From assembly GCF_037992945.1 (NCBI RefSeq), contig NZ_CP150304.1, positions 500,816-524,815 of the forward strand: DNA of 24,000 nt. Reading direction: 5' to 3'. Below are positions 8,627-19,631 of the stretch, in pieces. The DNA is from Peribacillus sp. FSL E2-0218 (GTDB lineage: Bacteria > Bacillota > Bacilli > Bacillales > DSM-1321). Numbering within the stretch: the stretch's first letter is position 1; each line of letters starts with the position of its first letter. A program made the position numbers and the translations under genes. The notes beneath the pieces were generated by a model. That model was not told the DNA's origin, searched no databases, and worked only from the letters and a program-made list of their open reading frames with translations.

Positions 8627-9112
8627 TTAAAGCCACTTTTCAAACTGAATTCTTTTGTTCATTGCATAAATGATTGGCGCACCAACCAAAAGGACAACGA
8701 ATTCACCAACTGCTGTGGTGCCCCAGCTTAACCAAAGCGGTAAGTCCAAGGCAAGGTTCAGTTCTATTGCAATCAAGAACATTGTGAACGTGAAAAAGAT
8801 AATCGTCGCGATCATCCGTCCTTGGATACTTTTAATGAAACGCGAAACAAAAATGACCAGCAGCAGGGCGAGTATGGATTGCCCGACCCCGAAAATCAAG
8901 TCAAACGGAACCATGGGTGAAAATAGCAGATTCGAAATGAATACACCGCCTACGATGCCATAGATGTATTTTTTATTGAATACTATCAGATGGTTCAGCA
9001 TTTCCGGAACCCGGAATTGGTATGCGCCAAAAGATATGGGTTGAAACACGAATGAGACCGCCACATATAAGGCAGCCAAGATCCCGCTTATCACGAGGGT
9101 ACGATTATTCAT
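8627..9112 (-). CDS. queT: QueT-family queuosine-precursor transporter (ECF S-component type)
   Basis: 161-aa protein with about 5 TM helices. It sits immediately downstream of a preQ1-I riboswitch whose 3' tail contains the gene's SD, which is the classic queT arrangement. Confidence 0.8.
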   Translation of the reverse strand: MNNRTLVISGILAALYVAVSFVFQPISFGAYQFRVPEMLNHLIVFNKKYIYGIVGGVFISNLLFSPMVPFDLIFGVGQSILALLLVIFVSRFIKSIQGRMIATIIFFTFTMFLIAIELNLALDLPLWLSWGTTAVGEFVVLLVGAPIIYAMNKRIQFEKWL

Positions 9113-9120
9113 TTTATTCT

Positions 9121-9160
9121 CTCCTAGTTTTTTATCGTGGGATGGTTACGAACCACGTAT
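9121..9160 (-). promoter_or_regulatory. preQ1-I riboswitch (translational, sequesters the queT SD)
   Basis: The minus strand reads ACGUGGUUCGUAACCAUCCCACGAUAAAAAACUAGGAG. P1 is CGUGG/CCACG, and the conserved GGUUC and the A-rich tail AUAAAAAACUA are present. It aligns almost position for position with the B. subtilis queC aptamer AGAGGUUCUAGCUACACCCUCUAUAAAAAACUAAGG. The AGGAG SD is part of the P2/tail, 8 nt from the ATG. Confidence 0.85.
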
Positions 9161-9325
9161 AGGTTTTTGCCTGAAGCTTAATAGTAGTCTAAATATGCCC
9201 CTTTCGTCAATTTGTAAAGAATGGTTATTGCACGACCTAGCTCCATGTAGGCCAAACGGAATTTTGATTTCTTGCATGGAAGGATGATATTATTTTTATA
9301 GAGAAGTAGAAGGAGTGAGAGTGAC

Positions 9326-9823
9326 GTGTCAATTGAAAGTGTCAAACATCATTTTAAAAAATGGAATCGAGAAGGCGAAGTGATGGAGTTCGAAACATCA
9401 AGCGCTACGGTTTATGAGGCAGCGGATACCATTGGTGTGATTCCTGCGCGGATCGCTAAGACCCTATCCTTCAGGGGGGAAGGTGACAAGGCGATTTTGG
9501 TTGTAGCGGCCGGGGATGCAAAAGTCGATAATAAGAAATTTCGCCAGTCATTCGGTTTCAAGGCAAGGATGCTGGCTCCTGATGAAGTGCTCCAACAGAC
9601 TGGGCATGCTATCGGCGGCGTTTGCCCATTTGGACTGGCCAACGAGCTGGACGTTTTTCTCGATGTATCAATGAAGCGGTTTGAGTCGATATTTCCCGCT
9701 TGCGGCAGTACGAATTCTGCCATAAAGCTTACACTTGCTGAATTATTGGAATATTCAGGCGCTGAGGGGTGGGTTGATGTGTGTAAGGATTGGGAAGAAG
9801 TGATAATCGAGGAAAAAGGTTAG
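9326..9823 (+). CDS. YbaK/EbsC-type aminoacyl-tRNA deacylase (prolyl-tRNA editing domain family)
   Basis: 165 aa. The pattern …ARIAKTLSFRGEGDKAILVVAAGDAKVDNKKF…GHAIGGVCPFGL… is typical of the YbaK/ProX editing fold. GTG start with AGGAG 10 nt upstream. Confidence 0.7.
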   Translation: MSIESVKHHFKKWNREGEVMEFETSSATVYEAADTIGVIPARIAKTLSFRGEGDKAILVVAAGDAKVDNKKFRQSFGFKARMLAPDEVLQQTGHAIGGVCPFGLANELDVFLDVSMKRFESIFPACGSTNSAIKLTLAELLEYSGAEGWVDVCKDWEEVIIEEKG

Positions 9824-11153: not shown

Positions 11154-11401
11154 GTTTTTGACACCTCCTATGTATAGGGTGAACTAATTGTTCTGCAATA
11201 TACAAACCTCATCCAGCTACGCTGTCGACGTATGTAAATACTGAATGTGGTACTTTTTGCATGATTCGATAATCCTGTAAATTTCTTTATTCTGGTAAAA
11301 AGCTACTTTCGTCATGGCTGAATAGGGATGAACCTACCTATTTAGATATCTTTTGCTATTGTAAAATTATGGAGTGGAACTATGAAACTGGGAGGCAATC
11401 T

Positions 11402-12799
11402 ATGAAAAAACAATTTCTATCATTTACACTAATCGCTGGAATGGTCCTTCATCCATCAGGGACAGTCCCTGCGTTGGCAGCAACACATCCTGCTCCGGCG
11501 CATCATGCTGCATCCGCAGATAAGCAGGTCGTTAAAAGGATCGATGTCGAAAAAATCTACAGAAATATTGATTACCTCTCCAAAACACCTCGAGTGGCCG
11601 GTACTGAATCAGAGTACAAGGCCGTCCAGTTCATCAAAAAGCAATTCAAATCATACGGCTATAAAGCCAATATCGAAAAGTTCAATTTTTTATCCTATAC
11701 GGATCCAAATCGGGTTGAGCTATCCATTGGCGGCTTTGATGGGGAAATCAAGCCAAACCATTTAACTTATTCAGTGAATGGAAATCCATCCGGTGAACTG
11801 GTATATGCCGGCCTAGGAACGAAGGAAGAGCTTGAAAAAGCAAGTGTCACAGGGAAAATTGCCCTTATCCAAAGAGGCAGTCTCACTTTTGCAGAGAAGG
11901 TACTGAACGCGGCAGAAAAAGGCGCGGCGGGTGTCATCCTGTACAATAATGCAGATGGCGAATTGAATGGAACCCTCGGAGGGGACAATGATCAGTATAT
12001 TCCTTCTGTCACGATCACGAAAAAAGATGGAGAGGCCCTGCTGGAAAAAATGAAGGCAGGAGGCAATTTGACCGCTTCATTAAAAATCGAAGGGGCTCAT
12101 ACTGGAGAAAAAACCTCTTATAACGTGGTGGCCATGAAAAAGGCTACCAAGAACATGAAAGCTAAAAAAAGCGATATCATTTATATCACAGGTCATCATG
12201 ATTCCGTCGCTGGAGCACCGGGAGCGAATGATGACGCATCGGGAACGTCTGTCACACTTGAACTTGCCCGGGTATTGAAGAATCTTCCCGCTGATACGGA
12301 AATCCGCTTCGTTACCTTCGGCGCCGAGGAGAATGGTCTGCTAGGTTCGCAGCATTATGTCGGGAACCTCCCTGAGGAGGAGATCAAGCGGACGATCGCC
12401 AACTTCAACCTCGATATGGTTGGAAGCAGGGACGCTGGAGATTTGGTGATTTTAAGTAATGATGGCGAAATGAATCTTGTGACCAATCTGGCTCAGGCAT
12501 CAAGTGCCAGGCTGAATGGGACGCCTACTCCTTATGGGCAAGGCGGCCGAAGTGACCATGTATCCTTCGCCGAGGCTGGGATTCCCGCGGCCTTATTCAT
12601 CCACAGTCCTTCAGAACCTTGGTATCATACTCCTGATGATACCATTGATAAGATCTCTAAGGAAAAGCTTCAAGATGTTGCTGAAATCGTCGGCACTGCT
12701 GTCTATGACCAAGCAAAAATTGAAAAGAAAAAAACATTTCCACCTCAAGGGAAAAAGGTGAAAGCACCGGATTTAGCTGAAGAGAAAGAATTCAAGTAA
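11402..12799 (+). CDS. Secreted M28-family aminopeptidase with PA (protease-associated) domain
   Basis: Signal peptide MKKQFLSFTLIAGMVLHPSGTVPALA. The PA insert reads …GKIALIQRGSLTFAEKVLNAAEKGAAGVILYNN…. Zn-ligand contexts are HHDSVAGAPGANDDASG, GAEENGLLGS, NLDMVGS and SDHVSF. I prefer the ATG at 11402 (GGGAGG SD) over the track start at 11369. Confidence 0.85.
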   Translation: MKKQFLSFTLIAGMVLHPSGTVPALAATHPAPAHHAASADKQVVKRIDVEKIYRNIDYLSKTPRVAGTESEYKAVQFIKKQFKSYGYKANIEKFNFLSYTDPNRVELSIGGFDGEIKPNHLTYSVNGNPSGELVYAGLGTKEELEKASVTGKIALIQRGSLTFAEKVLNAAEKGAAGVILYNNADGELNGTLGGDNDQYIPSVTITKKDGEALLEKMKAGGNLTASLKIEGAHTGEKTSYNVVAMKKATKNMKAKKSDIIYITGHHDSVAGAPGANDDASGTSVTLELARVLKNLPADTEIRFVTFGAEENGLLGSQHYVGNLPEEEIKRTIANFNLDMVGSRDAGDLVILSNDGEMNLVTNLAQASSARLNGTPTPYGQGGRSDHVSFAEAGIPAALFIHSPSEPWYHTPDDTIDKISKEKLQDVAEIVGTAVYDQAKIEKKKTFPPQGKKVKAPDLAEEKEFK

Positions 12800-12828
12800 G
12801 GAAGATGTACGAAGGGTAAGTTTTTTAG

Positions 12829-12853
12829 GGTGCATCCTGCACCCCTTTTTTTA
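12829..12853 (+). terminator. Rho-independent terminator
   Basis: gggtgca (12829-12835) / tgcaccc (12839-12845), followed by a T7 run. Confidence 0.8.
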
Positions 12854-13040
12854 TGTTTAAAAATGGAAAATTAGGGGTAATAAGCCTAGGTTGGAACTGC
12901 TTTTATATGGGTGTAATTTCCTAATGTTCGAGCTTAAATAGCTTATTTATCCCTATTTAACTGTAAGACTATAATCCTTATAATAAAAAATATGAAAAAT
13001 ATGACAGTGATGAAGAATGATTTTTTGAGGTGATTACGAA

Positions 13041-13466
13041 TTGCATGCAAATTCTTTAAGGGAGATTCACTCGGCCATCTCGGGCAGAATGTCGGATGTG
13101 AGTGAAAAAATCAATCGCTTGGAGCAGGCTAAACGACAAATCAATGAAGAACAAGATATATGCTTGGGAGAAATCAGGAAAATAATACATCCGGAATTGG
13201 CAGGAAGCTGGACGGGAAATCGAGCCGATGATTTCCAAGATGCCCGCAGCGATGCGTACAAGGCCATGTCTACGATCATTCATGCTGATTATGACGACTA
13301 TCAAGAGAAAATCGAAGGAAAAATCACAATGCTGAATATAGAGAAAACAGCTTTGAGTGCAGCAGGCACCATAGCCCATGAAGCGGATGCCCTTTTGGAA
13401 AAAGGAGAAGCCGTCATTGATCAATTGGAAAGTAAACTATCATATTTAAAAGGGTGGTTGTTTTAA
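13041..13466 (+). CDS. YwqH-like (DUF5082-type) helical LXG-toxin helper protein
   Basis: 141 aa, all-helical heptad-like sequence with the …WTGNRADDFQDAR… motif seen in B. subtilis YwqH. TTG start with GAGGTG SD 7 nt upstream. Its stop overlaps the next start (TAATG). First gene of the LXG operon. Confidence 0.7.
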   Translation: MHANSLREIHSAISGRMSDVSEKINRLEQAKRQINEEQDICLGEIRKIIHPELAGSWTGNRADDFQDARSDAYKAMSTIIHADYDDYQEKIEGKITMLNIEKTALSAAGTIAHEADALLEKGEAVIDQLESKLSYLKGWLF

Positions 13467-13753
13467 TGACGACAATCAAGCTGAATCATCCTGCCGTAAC
13501 GAAGCAGGTCGATCAGGTAAAGACGGCCCTTGGTGGCGTCAGTCTTGGACATGTACCAGCAGGAGAGCTTGGCAGCAATAAATTGGAATTTACCTCGAAG
13601 TGGATGGATCGGGAAACGAACCTTGAGAAGGTTTTCGAACAATATATTAAAATCGTCCAAAAAAATGTCGAAGATACCCGGGCCAATATCGATTTATTAA
13701 AAGAGCAGGATGAAGCCATCGCCCATACTTCACATGGGTATCCTGCGAGATGA
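13466..13753 (+). CDS. YwqI-like / TIGR04197 (SACOL2603)-type small T7SS helper protein
   Basis: 95 aa from the ATG at 13466 (the track start at 13454 lies inside the upstream gene). The …GSNKLEF… and …LLKEQDEAIA pattern matches the YwqI family. Its stop overlaps the LXG start (ATGA). Confidence 0.65.
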   Translation: MTTIKLNHPAVTKQVDQVKTALGGVSLGHVPAGELGSNKLEFTSKWMDRETNLEKVFEQYIKIVQKNVEDTRANIDLLKEQDEAIAHTSHGYPAR

Positions 13754-15720
13754 AAATATACGAAGCCGAGAGCTTGCAGGACGCAACCAAGTCACGCGCC
13801 AAGCAATATGAAGAGTTAAAGAAGCAAATCAATGCCCTGAAGAAGGAATTTCAGGGGATCGTCGCCCTAGATCACGAGTTTCAAGGAGCCGGTGCTGCCG
13901 CCATCAAAAGCTTCTATGAAGCGCAGATCGACGTGGCGGACGCCTGGATTGAGCTATTCACGACGCAAATCAGTTTTTTGGAGGGCATTCCTGCCACTCT
14001 CGAAGATGCGGACCTCTCCGGTAATACGGTGGTGGAGGTTCCTTTTTTAGATGGGGAGGTTTCGAATGGCATCAAGCAAGCGAAGTCGCTTGTCGATGAA
14101 CAAGCAAGCGATCTTAGCAGAATCCTGAACAGTATTGATGATATCCTACCTCTGGATATGTTCGACCAAAAGGATTTTAATGAAAAAATCACGCTGGCCG
14201 GGCATAGACTGGATGACACCGTGACAAAGGTAGAGAATGTCGACCGGCAATTGGTCGAGGAGTATGAAGTGTCTGTCGGGCAGGAAAACGTGGCGGTTGG
14301 CCTTTTCCGTGCCTTGCTTGATGCGACCAAACAGGACGGCACCATTTCGCCGATGACGTTCAACCAAACAGCCTTCAAGAATAGTGAAGTCTATCAAGTG
14401 AAGGATGAAGTCGCCGGTCAGATGAAGGAGTACCAGACCTTCAAAAAGGAACAAGCCGAAGCCAAGGAAATCGAACAAGAAATGGAAGAACTCGAAAACC
14501 GCCCATGGTACGAAAAAGCCTGGGATACGACAAAAACCTTTACAGGGGAATTTACGGGATATTATGATTCAATCAGGGCAACGACCGGGGTCGATCCAGT
14601 CACGGGCCGCAAGCTGTCCGATGCCGAACGAATCGCCGCAGGCGCCATGGCGGCCGCTGGGTTCATCCCCGTCGTCGGCTGGGCCGGACGGGCCATCAAG
14701 GGCGGCAGTGCCATCTACAAAACGGCCAAAGGACTGAACGCCGCGAATCACGCACTCGACGCTTACAAATCGACAAAGGGCTTTAGCCTTCTCCAGAAAT
14801 CCGAATACGGGATATACGGACTCCTCGCCGCCAACGGCCTTGGCGAAGCCGCCACAGGCAAAGACATGTTCGGCAACCAGCTAACCGAGGAACAGCGCCA
14901 GAACGGCCTCTTGATGGCACTGGGAATCGGCAGTGTGGCTGGTGCAGCCAAAGTCGCCGATAAAGTAGCAAGTGGTACAAAGTTCATCCCTTACAGCAAG
15001 GAATTTGCGCAGAAGCAGGTTCAGAAGGTTCAAGCTTTCGGCAGGGAAATCGGCAAGGTGGAAGTTCCTCTCCGGATTAGGGTCGAAGAATTAGCGACGG
15101 CGTATGGATACAACTATAAATATGTCACTTTTGATAATACTACGGTTAAGGATATCGTGCAGAAGTTTACGGTTAAGAGTGATGGTGGTAAGGGTACAGG
15201 CAAAGTAGTGCTTGCAAAGGAATCCATTGAAATTACAAAAGTGGAGTATGGAAAGCATTATACAAGAGAGCGGATGAAGAAAGTTTTAAAACCGAATATT
15301 GAATATACATCCCCTGGTGGTCACGTATATAAAACAGACGAAAAGGGTCGTATAACAAGTGTAGAAGGTTCTCTCGACTTAGGTAGTGGTAAACGAAACA
15401 ATTATGCTCAGCGAATTGCTGGAAGGGAAGACCGCTTGCCGGATGATCAAGGGGGCCACTTAATCGCCAGCATATTTAAAGGGTCTGGTCATCTAGACAA
15501 CCTTGTTCCTATGAATGCAAACCTGAATATGGGAGAATGGAAAAAACTCGAAATATCTTGGGCAAAAGCTTTAGACAGTAATCCTCCTAAAACAGTAGAA
15601 GTGAAAATTTATCCTGTGTATGAGGGAAATTCAACTCGACCTACAAGTTTCGACATAGAGTATAAAATTGACGATGGCCGTTGGGATTTAAGAACATTTG
15701 AAAATAGAGCAGGGGGATAA
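13750..15720 (+). CDS. T7SS LXG-domain polymorphic toxin with PT-TG-like pre-toxin region and C-terminal beta-beta-alpha-Me (Endonuclease_NS_2 / EsaD-YeeF-type) nuclease
   Basis: N-terminal LXG domain (MKIYEAESL…LDHEFQGAGAAAIKSFYEAQ…). A Gly/Ala-rich region contains VDPVTGRKLSDAERIAAGAMAAAGFIPVVG (PT-TG-like). The C-terminus reads …RLPDDQGGHLIASIFKGSGHLDNLVPMNANLNMGEWKKLE… with a candidate catalytic His at 15457-15459. Confidence 0.9.
   Translation: MKIYEAESLQDATKSRAKQYEELKKQINALKKEFQGIVALDHEFQGAGAAAIKSFYEAQIDVADAWIELFTTQISFLEGIPATLEDADLSGNTVVEVPFLDGEVSNGIKQAKSLVDEQASDLSRILNSIDDILPLDMFDQKDFNEKITLAGHRLDDTVTKVENVDRQLVEEYEVSVGQENVAVGLFRALLDATKQDGTISPMTFNQTAFKNSEVYQVKDEVAGQMKEYQTFKKEQAEAKEIEQEMEELENRPWYEKAWDTTKTFTGEFTGYYDSIRATTGVDPVTGRKLSDAERIAAGAMAAAGFIPVVGWAGRAIKGGSAIYKTAKGLNAANHALDAYKSTKGFSLLQKSEYGIYGLLAANGLGEAATGKDMFGNQLTEEQRQNGLLMALGIGSVAGAAKVADKVASGTKFIPYSKEFAQKQVQKVQAFGREIGKVEVPLRIRVEELATAYGYNYKYVTFDNTTVKDIVQKFTVKSDGGKGTGKVVLAKESIEITKVEYGKHYTRERMKKVLKPNIEYTSPGGHVYKTDEKGRITSVEGSLDLGSGKRNNYAQRIAGREDRLPDDQGGHLIASIFKGSGHLDNLVPMNANLNMGEWKKLEISWAKALDSNPPKTVEVKIYPVYEGNSTRPTSFDIEYKIDDGRWDLRTFENRAGG
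14969..15033. repeat. 65-nt homology segment, copy 1 (inside the LXG gene, encodes SGTKFIPYSKEFAQKQVQKVQ)
   Basis: 63/65 identical to 16378-16442 (mismatches at 15004 and 15012), aligned by hand. Both copies are in the coding frame. Confidence 0.9.
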
Positions 15721-15723
15721 AAA

Positions 15724-16191
15724 ATGAATGAATCAAAACTAAATGAATATTATCAGAAAATAGCTCAAACAGTAAATGAGATGATTCCAGAAGAATGGAG
15801 TAAAGTTATTTTGTATGGAGAAGTTAATGAGGGGACAGGGACTGCGTTCTTTTTCTATCAGTCTAATATTAATGATAAACTCATATATAGTCACGATATC
15901 CCTGAATTACATAGTATTAGTAGAATAGAGTATAGAGATACTTGGCGGAGGTTAATAAAGGTTTTAAAAGAATTATCAGATGAATTTAAAGATAATAATC
16001 AAGAACAATGGACCAATTTAACTTTTACTTTAGAAAGTACTGGGGAATTTAAAGTTGACTATGATTATGAAGATTTATCAAATGCAGATGATCACGAAAG
16101 AAGGGTTATTTGGGAATATACTCGTTTGGGTCTTTTACCTGAAACTGAATATGATAAGAGTATTTTAGAAGAATACCTCAAGAAAGAATAA
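15724..16191 (+). CDS. YezG/EsaG-family (DUF600) immunity protein
   Basis: 155 aa starting 3 nt after the toxin stop. Motifs …IPEEWSKVILYGEV…FFFYQ…, …WTNLTFTLESTGEFKVDYDYEDL… and …YTRLGLLPETEYDK… match the DUF600 pattern of YezG/EsaG, the known partners of EsaD/YeeF-type nucleases. Confidence 0.8.
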   Translation: MNESKLNEYYQKIAQTVNEMIPEEWSKVILYGEVNEGTGTAFFFYQSNINDKLIYSHDIPELHSISRIEYRDTWRRLIKVLKELSDEFKDNNQEQWTNLTFTLESTGEFKVDYDYEDLSNADDHERRVIWEYTRLGLLPETEYDKSILEEYLKKE

Positions 16192-16222
16192 TGGAGGATA
16201 AAAAAAGCTTGTTTTTTTGTAT

Positions 16223-16251
16223 GACCTTAACGGTAAAGTTAAGGTCTTTTC
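16223..16251 (+). terminator. Rho-independent terminator closing the expressed toxin-immunity operon
   Basis: gaccttaac (16223-16231) / gttaaggtc (16238-16246) form a perfect 9-bp stem with loop ggtaaa, followed by TTTT. Confidence 0.7.
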
Positions 16252-16377
16252 ATTGTAGAAATAGCATATGTATTGTTTTAAGTTATATCGGGCTTCTCAT
16301 ATAAAAGGCCGTTAGTTCTAAAAAAGATATATAGATAAGAATATGGATTTACTGACCTCAGACATCGTGATTAAATA

Positions 16378-16442
16378 CAAGTGGTACAAAGTTCATCCCT
16401 TACAGCAAGGAAATTGCGCAAAAGCAGGTTCAGAAGGTTCAA
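16378..16442. repeat. 65-nt homology segment, copy 2 (5' edge of the orphan toxin cassette)
   Basis: 63/65 identical to 14969-15033. It begins 7 nt after the stop codon (16368-16370) that opens the orphan reading frame. Confidence 0.9.
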
Positions 16443-16535
16443 ACTACAATAACAGACATTGCGAGATCTGGAAAAGCCACGTTAAAAAATATAGGTGAAG
16501 AACTAGGTAAAAAAGAAATCCCTAAACGGATAAGT

Positions 16536-17165
16536 ATGGAACAAGTATCCCTCGCAGGAGGACCAACCCTTCGCCAAGTTATGATGGAAAAGCAGACAAT
16601 TAAGGAAGCCTATCAGAAATTCACGGTTAAGGATAGCAAAGTAGAGGGTGTTTCTGGGGAGAGTATTACTAAAGGTAAAGTGTATCCAACTAGACAAATA
16701 GATTCAGTAGCAGAAACACATATAATTGATAGAGTAAAAGAGCTAAGAGGAAATTTAACAAGTAGGTATAAGAAATCTGGTAATTTTGCTGTTGCAGAAG
16801 TGGATGTCAGTGGGATAAGTAAATCTGAATTTTATGCTCAAAGTAGCATAAATGAACTCAAAGGAAGTCTTGAGGATATGGTGCCTGATATTTCTTTACA
16901 ACCTGAAAATCCAATGTTTAAAGCTACAGAAGCTATTGGTAAAGAGGGAGAGAGTTACTTAAGGAATACAGATACGGAGTATAAAATACTAAATGACATT
17001 GCTTCTGGGCTTGGGGAGAATACACAAGCTAATGGGAAAATTAAGTTATTTACAGAATTGGATACTTGTTACAGTTGTAGTAAAGTCATAGCAGAGTTTG
17101 CTGCTAAATATAAAAATATCGAATTAGAAGTCATACACAACAATGGTAATAGAATTATTCCTTAA
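16536..17165 (+). CDS. Orphan LXG-toxin C-terminal cassette (frame open from 16371; no credible start/SD), deaminase-fold-like tip
   Basis: The frame is open over 16371-17165 and starts with SGTKFIPYSKEIAQKQVQKVQ, homologous to LXG residues encoded at about 14972. It also shares QKFTVK (16614-16631 vs 15160-15177). The first ATG at 16536 has no SD. The tip has a D-T-E (16971-16979) followed 30 residues later by C-Y-S-C (17067-17078) within a strand-helix-strand pattern. Confidence 0.6.
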   Translation: MEQVSLAGGPTLRQVMMEKQTIKEAYQKFTVKDSKVEGVSGESITKGKVYPTRQIDSVAETHIIDRVKELRGNLTSRYKKSGNFAVAEVDVSGISKSEFYAQSSINELKGSLEDMVPDISLQPENPMFKATEAIGKEGESYLRNTDTEYKILNDIASGLGENTQANGKIKLFTELDTCYSCSKVIAEFAAKYKNIELEVIHNNGNRIIP

Positions 17166-17193
17166 ACTTAATTTTGAATGGAGGAGAAAATTA

Positions 17194-17550
17194 ATGAAAG
17201 ATTGGGGATATAATGAATTATTTGATGCGATTCAGGAGACATATGAAGAGTTGTTAGAAGAAGATAGGGGATATAGGTATGCTATAGCAAAACTAGCTGA
17301 TGAATTTGATAGATTAGGCAAGATAGAAGATTTTATTGTTGATACTGCTATTGGAGAGATAGCAATCGGCCATGAAAAAGTATATGTTGGGCGCATTGAA
17401 GGTATAACAAAAAGGTTAAGCATGTTTATCCCACAAGAAGCAGAATCTGACTTAACATTAGAAGAAATACAAGACTTATCGAAACGAATAAAAAAAGTAA
17501 TACAAGGACTAAGAAATGCAGAGGTTGATTATAATTCATCAGCAGAATAG
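17194..17550 (+). CDS. Putative cognate immunity protein of the orphan toxin
   Basis: 118 aa, acidic and helical. The ATG at 17194 has a strong GGAGGAG SD (17181-17187); the track start at 17143 overlaps the toxin and lacks an SD. It lies directly downstream of the toxin tip. Family not recognised. Confidence 0.55.
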   Translation: MKDWGYNELFDAIQETYEELLEEDRGYRYAIAKLADEFDRLGKIEDFIVDTAIGEIAIGHEKVYVGRIEGITKRLSMFIPQEAESDLTLEEIQDLSKRIKKVIQGLRNAEVDYNSSAE

Positions 17551-17586
17551 CAGGTGAAAGAAAAATATTTAATCATGAAGTGTTAA

Positions 17587-17618
17587 CCTTGAGTGGACAA
17601 AGCCATTCGAGGTTTTTT
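17587..17618 (+). terminator. Rho-independent terminator after the orphan cassette
   Basis: ccttgagtgg (17587-17596) pairs with ccattcgagg (17603-17612): 10 bp including 2 G-U pairs, followed by T6 (17613-17618). Confidence 0.65.
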
Positions 17619-18060
17619 AATGAATTAGACAGTTTTAAATCTTAGTATGTTATCTATGATGGCTAAGTGTTATTTTTATAATTTTTGAAATTACAGGAAA
17701 CTAAACAAATGAACCAACTAGAAGCAAAAGAAATAATCGAGCAATTTCATAGTTTTTGCGCAGATAAAGCAATCAATGAAGAGAATGGGGATTGATATCA
17801 ATCACCGATATAAATATAAAAAAGCATTATAGGGGCTTTTATGTCCAGATCCCAGTTTATCCTATGTTAAACAGGAACCGCGACGGTTTGTACCTCATGT
17901 ACTGGAAAAAGGTTTGAATATCCACCCAATTCTTTAATTAAGCAAGCAAGCGATTAGTTTTACAAAAAGTGGGTATAAAGTATGGAGCGACCTTTCATTT
18001 AATAGCTAACACTAAGTTTTCTTTATGTTGAATAAGGAGAATTTGGTGGGAGGTGATTAA

Positions 18061-18251
18061 ATGAGGAAAGTCTATGGTATTAAAAGTTTAATAAGTACCT
18101 TGAGTCGGTAAATCAGCCAATTACCGAAGAGGAGATCAATGATCTGATATTAAATAAAAAGATACCCCATCTCAGACCCATCAATAATTTACTGGTTTTT
18201 AATTTAGATCATATTGATGGCTGGCTTCATGACCAGCCATCCAAACCTTAA
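18061..18251 (+). pseudogene. Possible frameshifted small excisionase/MerR-like HTH gene remnant
   Basis: A strong SD (GGAGGTG) precedes the ATG at 18061, but that ORF stops after 16 codons. The frame offset by two bases continues as KYLESVNQPITEEEINDLILNKKIPHLRPINNLLVFNLDHIDGWLHDQPSKP*, which resembles the …IP..K.G….F….I..WL pattern of excisionase-type HTH proteins. Weak call. Confidence 0.3.
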
Positions 18252-18290
18252 CTAATGGAAGCCCTGCTTACAAGTGAATTTAAAGGGAAA

Positions 18291-18340
18291 AGCCGGCCAA
18301 GGTGTTTCATGAAAACCTTGGCCGGCTCCTTTTCTTTTTT
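18291..18340. terminator. Strong hairpin terminator between convergent units
   Basis: agccggccaagg (18291-18302) / ccttggccggct (18316-18327) form a perfect 12-bp stem. A T-rich tract follows on the plus strand, and a weaker U-tract on the minus strand (for the DUF445 gene). Confidence 0.8.
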
Positions 18341-18374
18341 ATTAGTGGAAAGGGATCACCAGCTGGCGCATGAC

Positions 18375-19631
18375 TCATAATAGCGTAAGCAGGGCTTGGA
18401 TGCCGGTCAGGATGATCCCGATTATAAAACCGCATACGGCTCCGTTCACCCGGATCCATTGCAAGTCTTTTCCTACCCCATTTTCCATCATGTCGATCAG
18501 CGTTTCGTTATCTAGCTTATCGAGATTTTCCTGGACAAGATTGCCGATTTGCGTATGATTATTTTCAATGAGAGCAGTAATTTGCTTCTGGATCCATTGA
18601 TCGATGCTGGTGCTATTTTCTTTCATATTATCCAGGACTCGCTGAATGATGGGGGTCAAGTAAGCGTCCATGAAATGCTCACCTTCGACGAATTCCAGTG
18701 CTTCTTGTTGAATTTGTTGTAGACCTCCCGTTATGGTTGCCTCGGGCTCCCATTTCGTTAGAAGTTGTTCCTTCCATTTTTCAACTCCTTGTAACAGTTC
18801 CCTGTTATCGTTAATGCCTTGAATTTCTTTCCTGATATATAAGATTAAAGCTTCTCTATTTGGTTCCTTCTCATTTTTTAAATTATTTACGACACTTAAC
18901 AGAAGGTTTTGGATGATATTGCCCAGTTTCTCCTCGTTAAGCAAGCTTTGAATCGATTTAACGGCAAACTGAAGCATGCCCTCCAGTTCAATCTTGCTGA
19001 GTACATCCATGGAAACAGTGCCTAGCCTGTGTCCGGTTTCTTTTTGCCTTAACCAATCTTCAGCTTTTTTCAAAACATGGTCCAAAGCCTTTTTATCAAA
19101 CTCTTCGTTTACTAACTGTGAACTTACAGCATGTAGAAGCTTGCTCATGTCTATGTTAGAAAGTGATCCTTTTATTTTTTTTGCAACAAAAGGCGTAATC
19201 TTTTCTATATCTATATAACATATCATTTGCTTAATAAGTTTAATCAGGACTTTTCTGAACGTGTCACTTTGTGTCTCTTTTACTATGACTGGGATCAATT
19301 TTTCTGTAAAAGGAATGTTTTTGACTTTATCCTGAATGCTCTCCTTAGACAGCCAATCGTTTTTCAGCATTGAAACCAGTGCATGGGTCATTCTTTTCCG
19401 GTTGTTGGGCAAGAGAGCTGTATGGGGGATCGGAATTCCAAGCGGATGGCGGAATAGTGCAGTGACGGCAAACCAATCTGCCAATCCACCGACAAGTCCT
19501 GCCTCGAATCCTCCGTGTAATAAATCCAGCGGCAAGGAACCTAGAAAGGGAGTGGTTGCAATATATCCCGCTCCCATGATCAATAATGAATACCGAGCTA
19601 TTTTTCTTGACGATTTTATTTTTGGCGACAT
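18375..19631 (-). CDS. DUF445-family membrane protein
   Basis: 418 aa. The N-terminal region …GGLADWFAVTALFRHPLGIPIPHTALLPNNRKR… is the hallmark DUF445 motif. A long helical middle is followed by a C-terminal TM helix. Confidence 0.7.
   Translation of the reverse strand: MSPKIKSSRKIARYSLLIMGAGYIATTPFLGSLPLDLLHGGFEAGLVGGLADWFAVTALFRHPLGIPIPHTALLPNNRKRMTHALVSMLKNDWLSKESIQDKVKNIPFTEKLIPVIVKETQSDTFRKVLIKLIKQMICYIDIEKITPFVAKKIKGSLSNIDMSKLLHAVSSQLVNEEFDKKALDHVLKKAEDWLRQKETGHRLGTVSMDVLSKIELEGMLQFAVKSIQSLLNEEKLGNIIQNLLLSVVNNLKNEKEPNREALILYIRKEIQGINDNRELLQGVEKWKEQLLTKWEPEATITGGLQQIQQEALEFVEGEHFMDAYLTPIIQRVLDNMKENSTSIDQWIQKQITALIENNHTQIGNLVQENLDKLDNETLIDMMENGVGKDLQWIRVNGAVCGFIIGIILTGIQALLTLL

Follow-up and report, generated by a model that had tools for sequence, protein, structure and literature searches.

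The question raised by this locus is how a toxin frame that lacks the means of being started came to lie behind a complete toxin operon, to which it is tied by a short stretch of nearly identical DNA. The locus is found in a window, by which we mean the whole 24,000-nt stretch that was analyzed, of Peribacillus sp. FSL E2-0218, a soil Peribacillus from the simplex/frigoritolerans group (contig NZ_CP150304.1, positions 500,816 to 524,815 of the forward strand). According to our analysis, it is a polymorphic LXG (type VIIb secretion) locus in which an expressed pair of EssD-like nuclease and YezG-like immunity protein is accompanied by an orphan pair, a BURPS668_1122-type deaminase with Imm3, the arrangement having been built by recombination at the shared stretch, hereafter called the handle. 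We put the probability of this reading at roughly 0.75. Related loci and proteins are cited by L and P numbers, respectively. The features on which the argument rests are the following.

13750 to 15720, + strand: full-length LXG toxin of 656 amino acids (aa) (Pfam: LXG, PT-TG, and Endonuclea_NS_2)
14969 to 15036, + strand: handle, trunk copy, the last trunk segment kept across the family (repeat alignment and comparison with relatives)
16378 to 16445, + strand: handle, orphan copy (repeat alignment; decayed homology continues leftward to 16368)
16371 to 17165, + strand: start-less orphan toxin frame of 264 codons (Toxin-deaminase PF14424, BURPS668_1122 family, E 7e-49)
17194 to 17550, + strand: Imm3 immunity gene (Pfam PF14425, E 2e-44; Shine-Dalgarno [SD] sequence GGAGGAG, -12.5 kcal/mol)

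The handle repeat and the fused form of the orphan toxin

The two copies of the handle, 14969 to 15036 and 16378 to 16445, are direct repeats identical at 65 of 68 positions and separated by 1409 nt from start to start. Both are in the coding frame, where they correspond to S408 to Q429 of the 656-aa LXG protein and to codons 4 to 25 of the frame that opens at 16371. The first-pass annotation of this DNA had described an in-frame repeat of 63/65, which is confirmed here and extended by three bases. In 100 shuffled versions of the window, no match to the handle with up to 3 mismatches was found. To the left of the orphan copy, weak homology to the trunk continues for about 10 nt, to 16368, with a 1-nt deletion (GATTAAATA-C versus GATAAAGTAGC, as aligned with relatives), so that the TGA at 16368 to 16370 lies inside a decayed trunk remnant.

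The handle is the final trunk segment kept in one Peribacillus LXG family, with about 90 to 98% nucleotide identity in every member, and the peptide that it encodes, SGTKF[IV]PYSKEFAQKQVQ, is conserved. A degenerate handle pattern, searched for in 185,579 species with one genome each, retrieved 19 stretches, one in Bacillus sp. ISL-34 and the other 18 in genomes that bear the name Peribacillus. The concern that the 65-nt identity might be ordinary conservation present in unrelated LXG genes is thereby dispelled, since the segment belongs to a single Peribacillus family and contains mapped recombination breakpoints. What the handle represents is the last conserved piece of the trunk, a relic and no special element.

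When the orphan frame was used alone as a query, only proteins of at most 460 aa were retrieved, as if the tip were never fused; we rejected this reading, since a query assembled in silico from trunk residues 1 to 407 and the orphan frame from SGTKF onward then recovered fused proteins. These form six clusters (P0119 to P0124) of 670 aa each, with LXG, PT-TG, and PF14424 domains, which are 86 to 92% identical to the in silico fusion over 100% of its length. Comparison with related genomes, suggested in the first-pass annotation as a means of finding the orphan tip on the LXG trunk, located the fusion at the orthologous locus, followed by Imm3, in P. simplex (L004, GCA_042793895) and in P. frigoritolerans (L006, CP085514). 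In blastn, positions 11273 to 15036 of the window correspond to L004 7521 to 11287, and positions 16380 to 17665 correspond to L004 11222 to 12513. Since these two segments have precisely the handle in common, the window amounts to L004 with 1409 nt inserted, the repeat lying on either side. This agrees, on an evolutionary scale only, with the layout predicted earlier for a deletion of about 1.4 kb that fuses tip and trunk. In silico deletion between the repeats yields an open frame of 2007 nt encoding 668 aa, two residues short of the natural 670 aa because the window's orphan has lost 6 nt in its KGTGK joint.

The layout of the window recurs in Bacillus sp. mrc49 (L001), which is 98.7% identical over 9 kb, and in a third genome, Peribacillus sp. 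SI8-4 (L020 and L009, adjacent blocks of one contig). These two are the nearest genomes; an exact match to the window's LXG protein was sought in an assembly index, with no hit. Some other strains likewise hold the deaminase/Imm3 cassette as an orphan, with more of the trunk left in front of it (P0001, 298 aa, in L003; P0003, 372 aa, in L002).

The orphan deaminase frame and its immunity gene

The deaminase domain occupies aa 122 to 258 of the orphan frame (nt ~16734 to 17144) and scores 166 bits with PF14424, against a curated cut-off of 29.6. The frame is intact and keeps all columns that are conserved at ≥95% in 84 homologues, including D201-T-E203 and C233-x-x-C236; by profile and core residues, its tip is predicted to belong to the BURPS668_1122 deaminase toxin family PF14424. 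A PDB sequence search with the deaminase tip found no solved relative. Imm3 lies directly 3' of the PF14424 tip in all seven annotated arrangements compared (window and L001 to L006). Upstream and downstream, the cassette is bordered by the following features.

15724 to 16191, + strand: YezG-like immunity gene for the nuclease tip (Pfam PF04634, E 5e-50; SD -13.0 kcal/mol)
16192 to 16377, + strand: inter-cassette spacer with a terminator-like hairpin at 16223 to 16246; the spacer accompanies YezG cassettes in other genomes
17585 to 17614, + strand: terminator-like hairpin closing the orphan cassette (12-pair stem, then TTTTTAATGAA)

The expression signals of the two orphan genes differ. Between 16371 and 16536, no in-frame ATG, GTG, or TTG was detected, and the ATG at 16536 is preceded by SD:anti-SD pairing of -3.3 kcal/mol, which falls short of the mean background in the window (-4.4). 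A consensus scan found no promoter-like site on the + strand from 16192 to 16993, and Pfam detected no LXG, PT-TG, or other export domain in the 264-aa frame. In contrast, the SD sequence before the Imm3 ATG at 17194 is strong. The first-pass annotation had described these signals correctly, both the absence of a start codon or SD sequence for the orphan frame (with none before its first ATG) and the excellent GGAGGAG of the gene behind it. Its placement of the frame, opening right after a TGA and downstream of the terminator that closes the expressed operon, also holds, but the hairpin concerned, 3' of the YezG-like gene, has a short T-run (TTTTC); the fold of 16185 to 16270 reaches -22 kcal/mol, with a z score of -4.4. 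Because it has no secretion domain, start codon, or ribosome-binding site, the orphan toxin is most likely not made. Imm3 is probably translated: its own strong ribosome-binding site could serve transcripts that read through the weak terminator or start at an internal promoter, and the product would shield the cell from neighbours deploying the deaminase on a full-length LXG protein.

It could be argued that the 209-aa open reading frame (ORF) starting at the ATG at 16536 is expressed on its own, for example, as an intracellular deaminase restrained by Imm3 or as a toxin exported by another route. This ORF contains the whole deaminase domain and is called as a gene by the NCBI annotation of Bacillus sp. 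mrc49 (P0004), and in some other strains' orphans an ATG occurs just before the handle (P0073, MAEKKVASGTKF; P0083, MHRKKLASGTKF). We nevertheless deem this very improbable, given the SD pairing below background strength, the negative promoter scan, and the lack of LXG or another export domain noted above. Moreover, 55 conserved codons without a stop precede the ATG in the same frame, as trunk and linker remnant, which fits a gene fragment rather than a gene, and the matching upstream codon is a stop in sister junctions.

The features of 16371 to 17550 are instead those by which orphan toxin-immunity modules were defined for contact-dependent growth inhibition (CDI) as well as Rhs systems, a definition applied to LXG toxins in PMC7790226. 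The module lies on the same strand as, and 3' of, a full-length toxin/immunity pair (13750 to 15720 and 15724 to 16191), it has neither a delivery domain nor start signals, its 5' end is homologous to the main gene (65/68 nt), Imm3 adjoins it as the predicted cognate immunity gene, and the same tip is carried by full-length LXG toxins in other strains (P0119 to P0124). The reading frame of the tip appears to be under similar constraint in both states: the ratio of nonsynonymous to synonymous divergence (dN/dS) of the deaminase tip is 0.16 to 0.49, with no difference between orphan and fused copies. These equal ratios lend no support to relaxed selection on a decaying pseudogene. The comparison between the window and L001 is indecisive, as it comprises too few changes (7 synonymous and 10 nonsynonymous). 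Drift in the orphan tip is hinted at by two replacements in the window (R213G and D234Y), by one in L001 (L207P), and by the loss of 6 nt in the joint.

Recombination at the handle and the origin of the layout

What follows each handle copy explains why the repeat is so short, and involves two further features.

15037 to 15203, + strand: linker class B, ending in the KGTGK joint at ~15190 to 15204 (L002 aligns with the window through 15203)
16446 to 16680, + strand: linker class A (shared at 91 to 95% nucleotide identity with other cassettes and with full-length genes in L002 to L006)

The segments after the two handle copies are divergent homologous linkers (BLASTP, 36% identity over 183 columns, E 2e-18), in an alignment that also runs into unrelated tips and whose real similarity is confined to the first ~85 columns. 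The first-pass annotation had seen a collapse of similarity after the handle, with a lone QKFTVK island before different toxin tips; the tips are indeed different, whereas the island is not isolated, since the shared QKFTVK stretch is part of the homologous linkers. Among 119 full-length family members, the linkers diverge immediately after the handle into three classes, A (~68 members), B (~38), and C (3). Linker A is carried with at least six different tips by proteins P0072 to P0085, and in most cassettes, including the window's orphan, it forms with the handle a block of ~300 nt that is 91 to 95% identical across strains. In the window, homology stops after 68 nt because the resident gene has linker B and not linker A. 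Both linker classes end in a KGTG(K) joint before the toxin domain (window 15190 to 15204 and 16672 to 16683; proteins P0016, P0028, and P0045), and many different tips follow it. The deaminase tip with the same joint (KGTGKVYPTRQ) also occurs on unrelated trunks in the B. cereus group and in Neobacillus. In the orphans of both the window and L001, the 6-nt deletion leaves KG--KVYP versus KGTGKVYP in relatives.

Breakpoints fall inside both copies of the handle. Relative to SI8-4, from which background divergence is ~5%, the region from 15022 to 17600, which covers both cassettes, differs by at most 1%, and 15022 to 16396 differs by just 0.15%. The left edge of this low-divergence block, at 15021/15022, is inside the trunk copy of the handle, and the block ends near the hairpin at 17585 to 17614. 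The window and L001 show 118 differences over 9 kb, and nine of these sit in the orphan copy, within 16397 to 16440, where ~0.6 would be expected; once SI8-4 is added, all nine prove unique to the window, and eight of them bring the orphan copy into agreement with the trunk copy of the window itself. Intragenomic gene conversion from that trunk was considered as the source and is not fully consistent with the data, since the orphan-type base is retained, unconverted, at 16421 and 16443, and the change at 16413 is unique. The patch is equally compatible with an external handle allele such as that of L002 13752 to 13817.

Other genomes show different continuations at the same point. Peribacillus sp. 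BBB004 (L012), another species, is collinear with window positions 14300 to 16433, comprising the trunk end, linker B, nuclease, YezG, spacer, and handle, and beyond the equivalent of 16433 it carries a different orphan, consisting of linker B and a YwqJ-like deaminase. In L018 the sequence runs on through linker A before the orphan is cut short (50 codons), and L023 has a nuclease/YezG cassette without an orphan behind. Many short-handle orphans elsewhere share a homologous junction upstream of the handle (GATTTACT..CAGGCAAGGTGGCTTAGAAAAAAGTAGC; found in L002, L006, L012, L016, L018, and L022), and this shared sequence is the right end of YezG-type cassettes. Horizontal exchange of the cassette is evident from synonymous divergence (dS) between the window and L004, which is 0.099 in the orphan tip and 0.059 in Imm3, compared with 0.40 in the trunk and 0.61 to 0.79 in the flanking genes. 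The deaminase/Imm3 cassette is thus ~6 to 13 times closer to a foreign fused copy than the flanking genes are, and because its dS is so far below theirs, it must have moved between lineages long after their split. Taken from the sequence comparisons, homologous recombination at the handle can be read in the block edge, in the apparently converted patch, in the alternative orphan joined at the repeat, and in the dS of the cassette.

These observations bear directly on the idea that the 68-nt match reflects a protein motif conserved passively within the family, with no role in recombination. The conserved peptide and the high nucleotide identity of the handle in every member of this Peribacillus family would agree with it. 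We find it scarcely credible, however, because at least three linker classes diverge exactly at the right end of the handle, the boundaries of the block and the patch fall within it, and nine differences accumulate in 44 nt of the orphan copy; in addition, that copy is predicted to be untranslated, so that selection at the protein level cannot hold it.

According to the model that we favor, recombination at the handle built the locus, in the following way. Incoming DNA comprising the trunk 3' end, nuclease tip, YezG, spacer, and handle would most likely have replaced the matching part of an ancestral LXG-deaminase gene, through one crossover in the trunk and one in the handle, and the old tip with Imm3 would have been pushed downstream. 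The orphan toxin would thereby have retained just the last 22 trunk codons, which are the handle, and its own linker. Conversely, if the two handle copies were to recombine in a RecA-type crossover, 1409 nt would be lost and the 668-aa LXG-deaminase regained, a form that related strains carry naturally. We infer the direction of the founding event, and whether only 68 nt of homology would allow deletion at a useful rate is likewise a matter of inference. Displacement of the old tip by an incoming cassette explains the layout equally well as reactivation by deletion does.

This leads to a rival explanation, in which the orphan toxin is a mere passenger of the arrival of the nuclease cassette: only Imm3 would be maintained, as protection, the handle would have no continuing role, and the frame would be bound to decay. 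Several observations fit this view, namely, the truncation of orphans that follow the same YezG-spacer-handle junction elsewhere (L018, 50 codons; L021; and L022), the absence of any orphan behind the cassette of L023, the joint deletion shared by the window and L001, the lineage-specific changes (R213G and D234Y in the window, and L207P of L001, which is within the conserved EYKILNDIA motif), and the shortness of the homology to the resident gene. Yet the 264-codon frame is intact with every strongly conserved residue kept, its dN/dS against close relatives is 0.25 to 0.37, the same as that between fused copies, breakpoints and a converted patch inside the handle imply that it is still recombining, and at a single locus the same cassette is fused in some strains and an orphan in others. 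We consider a pure relic of displacement unlikely.

Some points also weigh against the recombination model that we prefer. Only three genomes with the window's layout are known, and among the relatives compared no fused derivative with the window-type trunk was found, the best fused proteins being 92% identical. At 68 nt (65/68), the homology between resident gene and orphan is about as short as homologous recombination is reported to tolerate in B. subtilis, the lower limit being ~70 bp (Khasanov 1992, as cited in PMC5658365). Decay does occur, since some orphans at this junction are truncated in other genomes (L018, L021, and L022), and the patch at 16397 to 16440, with its unconverted and unique positions, is no simple copy of the window's own trunk and has an uncertain donor. 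The silence of the toxin and the expression of Imm3 are predictions from sequence signals, and the weak T-run of the terminator-like hairpin makes read-through plausible. As far as sequence comparison reaches, deletion and switching are supported as events on an evolutionary scale and not as an ongoing process.

A more far-reaching interpretation, which we regard as quite doubtful, is that the handle, the YezG-spacer junction, and the linker classes A, B, and C constitute a rule-based cassette-exchange system of Peribacillus LXG loci, whose cassettes would be imported and excised through crossovers in the handle. The resident linker would then set the homology available to an orphan, ~300 nt when matched and 68 nt when mismatched. 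If this were true, a mismatched linker, such as that of the present strain, would "lock" the current toxin and slow switching, and the switching rate would be a heritable, tunable property of the locus.

The resident operon, known systems, and neighboring sequence

The locus is bounded by a Peptidase_M28 gene and a DUF445 gene, the gene order being Peptidase_M28, YwqH-like, DUF5344, and LXG, with DUF445 at the far end, and an LXG operon is present there in every related genome examined. In the near-identical relative L001, a scan of the called genes found ordinary housekeeping Pfam domains in the genes flanking the locus. Upstream of the LXG gene, the resident operon comprises the following features.

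12957 to 12984, + strand: promoter-like site upstream of the LXG operon, TTAACT-16-TATAAT (consensus scan, 10/12 matches; a consensus match only)
13041 to 13466, + strand: YwqH-like small helical partner gene (Pfam PF16888, E 4e-9; SD -13.8 kcal/mol)
13466 to 13753, + strand: DUF5344 small partner gene (Pfam PF17279, E 1e-20; ATG at 13466, SD -10.2 kcal/mol)

The DUF5344 gene has an alternative GTG at 13454 without an SD sequence, and its annotated length in related loci is 95 to 96 aa. The gene at 13750 to 15720 encodes, in order, LXG (aa 2 to 200; PF04740, E 2e-39), PT-TG (aa 255 to 322), the handle (aa 408 to 429), linker B, and an EssD/EsaD-like nuclease tip (aa 515 to 641; PF13930, E 5e-41). 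In a PDB sequence search, the tip matches the solved S. aureus EssD nuclease domain structures 8GUO and 8GUN (E 4e-39). With an N-terminal LXG domain, a C-terminal toxin domain, an adjoining immunity gene, and the YwqH-like and DUF5344 partner genes directly upstream, this gene has the attributes of an LXG effector of a type VIIb secretion system (T7SSb). Judging from the literature (PMC9600955 and PMC10327511), the products of the two small genes would act as targeting factors. A scan of 12800 to 18500 against Rfam detected no RNA element in the spacer and returned just two sub-threshold chance matches to eukaryotic families. Ahead of the YwqH-like gene, the intergenic and promoter region at 12801 to 13000 differs by 24% from that of Peribacillus sp. 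SI8-4, versus ~5% in adjacent genes, and the regulatory region of the operon may have been swapped out there.

Orphan LXG modules with 5' homology have already been published (PMC7790226): in Enterococcus faecalis OG1RF, OG1RF_11111, 11113, and 11123 lie downstream of OG1RF_11109 and 11121 (Chatterjee et al. 2021), and recombination through the 5' homology was proposed for them. Like these, the Peribacillus orphan is a toxin fragment without an LXG domain, located 3' of a full-length LXG gene and homologous to it at its 5' end (>75% at the nucleotide level in OG1RF), and homologues of the fragments occur as full-length LXG proteins in other strains or species (PMC7790226). Unlike in the OG1RF description, the tip and immunity protein belong to recognized families (PF14424 and Imm3), and the fused state is found at the orthologous locus, with breakpoints that can be mapped inside the homology; this same-locus pair of fused and orphan forms and the mapped breakpoints are what our analysis adds. 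Compared with OG1RF, the Peribacillus orphan shares an unusually short stretch with its resident gene (68 nt), owing to the different linker classes of the two.

Orphan toxin/immunity arrays are also known from CDI (cdiA-CT/cdiI) and Rhs systems (Poole et al. 2011 and Koskiniemi et al. 2014, as cited in PMC7790226). As summarized in that source, in these arrays, too, the main gene is followed by C-terminal toxin fragments that lack a start, together with their cognate immunity genes, their short homology to the main gene permits a recombination that fuses the orphan tip to the trunk, and a displacement model explains their origin. In contrast, delivery here depends on a Gram-positive T7SSb LXG trunk and not on CdiA or Rhs, and the joint is the trunk-end segment SGTKF[IV]PYSKEFAQKQVQ followed by one of at least three linker classes ending in KGTG(K), whereas the CDI and Rhs joint is VENN or PxxxxDPxGL. 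Experimental activation is reported for Rhs in Salmonella, while the Peribacillus locus is known from sequence comparison.

The resident operon resembles the YeeF-YezG/YwqJ operons of B. subtilis (Kobayashi 2021, PMC8321402) in its LXG, PT-TG, and nuclease main gene, its YezG-family immunity gene, and the YwqH-like and DUF5344-type genes upstream, and "ribonuclease YeeF family protein" is the name that NCBI gives to relatives of the main gene. That study, which deliberately excluded truncated LXG proteins and did not analyze orphan tips, describes B. subtilis 168 without the handle or an orphan deaminase/Imm3 cassette. Immunity genes without a partner toxin, that is, orphans, are also present in T7SS loci of Listeria (PMC10327511). 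Searching the literature for LXG toxins of Peribacillus brought up nothing specific. Tip swaps through short homologies are thought to be the way in which polymorphic toxin loci diversify, and most examples are inferred from a single genome. The Peribacillus locus leaves the current picture of LXG/T7SSb toxin evolution unchanged and documents it cleanly in a genus without an earlier description, thus offering a natural system for the frequency of switching, the homology that it needs, and the expression and protective value of orphan immunity genes.

At the same locus, P. frigoritolerans strains hold long arrays (L002 10001 to 20100; L006 12900 to 17450) with several handle-bearing orphans of different tips (TNT, nuclease, and others) and many small immunity-type genes, including Imm59, UCP033725, YeeD, and ADP_ribosyl_GH; the single-orphan array of the window is a short version of these. 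ADP_ribosyl_GH, YeeD, and UCP033725 genes follow Imm3 in related strains and not in the window. A short open stretch of the + strand at ~17690 to 17790 (KQMNQLEAKEIIEQFHSFCADKAINEENGD*) resembles the C terminus of a gene fragment at L002 15183 to 15368, which is in an array with ADP_ribosyl_GH genes, and appears to be what remains of a downstream array portion that has been deleted. In L002, an Endonuclease_5 (endonuclease V, PF04493) gene at 8975 to 9676 sits in an LXG-YwqJ-deaminase toxin cassette, after the putative immunity gene; judging from its family, a repair enzyme for deaminated bases beside a deaminase toxin, it could be an accessory, repair-type protection.

Farther downstream, the + strand at ~18059 to 18250 holds a 63-aa ORF (MRKxYGIKSL...NLDHIDGWL) that is intact in L001 (11148 to 11339), L006 (17251 to 17442), and L002 (19906 to 20097), and is frameshifted in the window, with its N terminus in one frame and "YLESVNQPITEEEINDLILNKKIPHLRP..." in another. 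At 18291 to 18327, just 3' of the minus-strand DUF445 gene ending at 18375, a near-perfect inverted repeat with 16-nt arms (94% complementary) and a 5-nt loop gave only sub-threshold chance matches in Rfam and is probably the terminator of the DUF445 gene.

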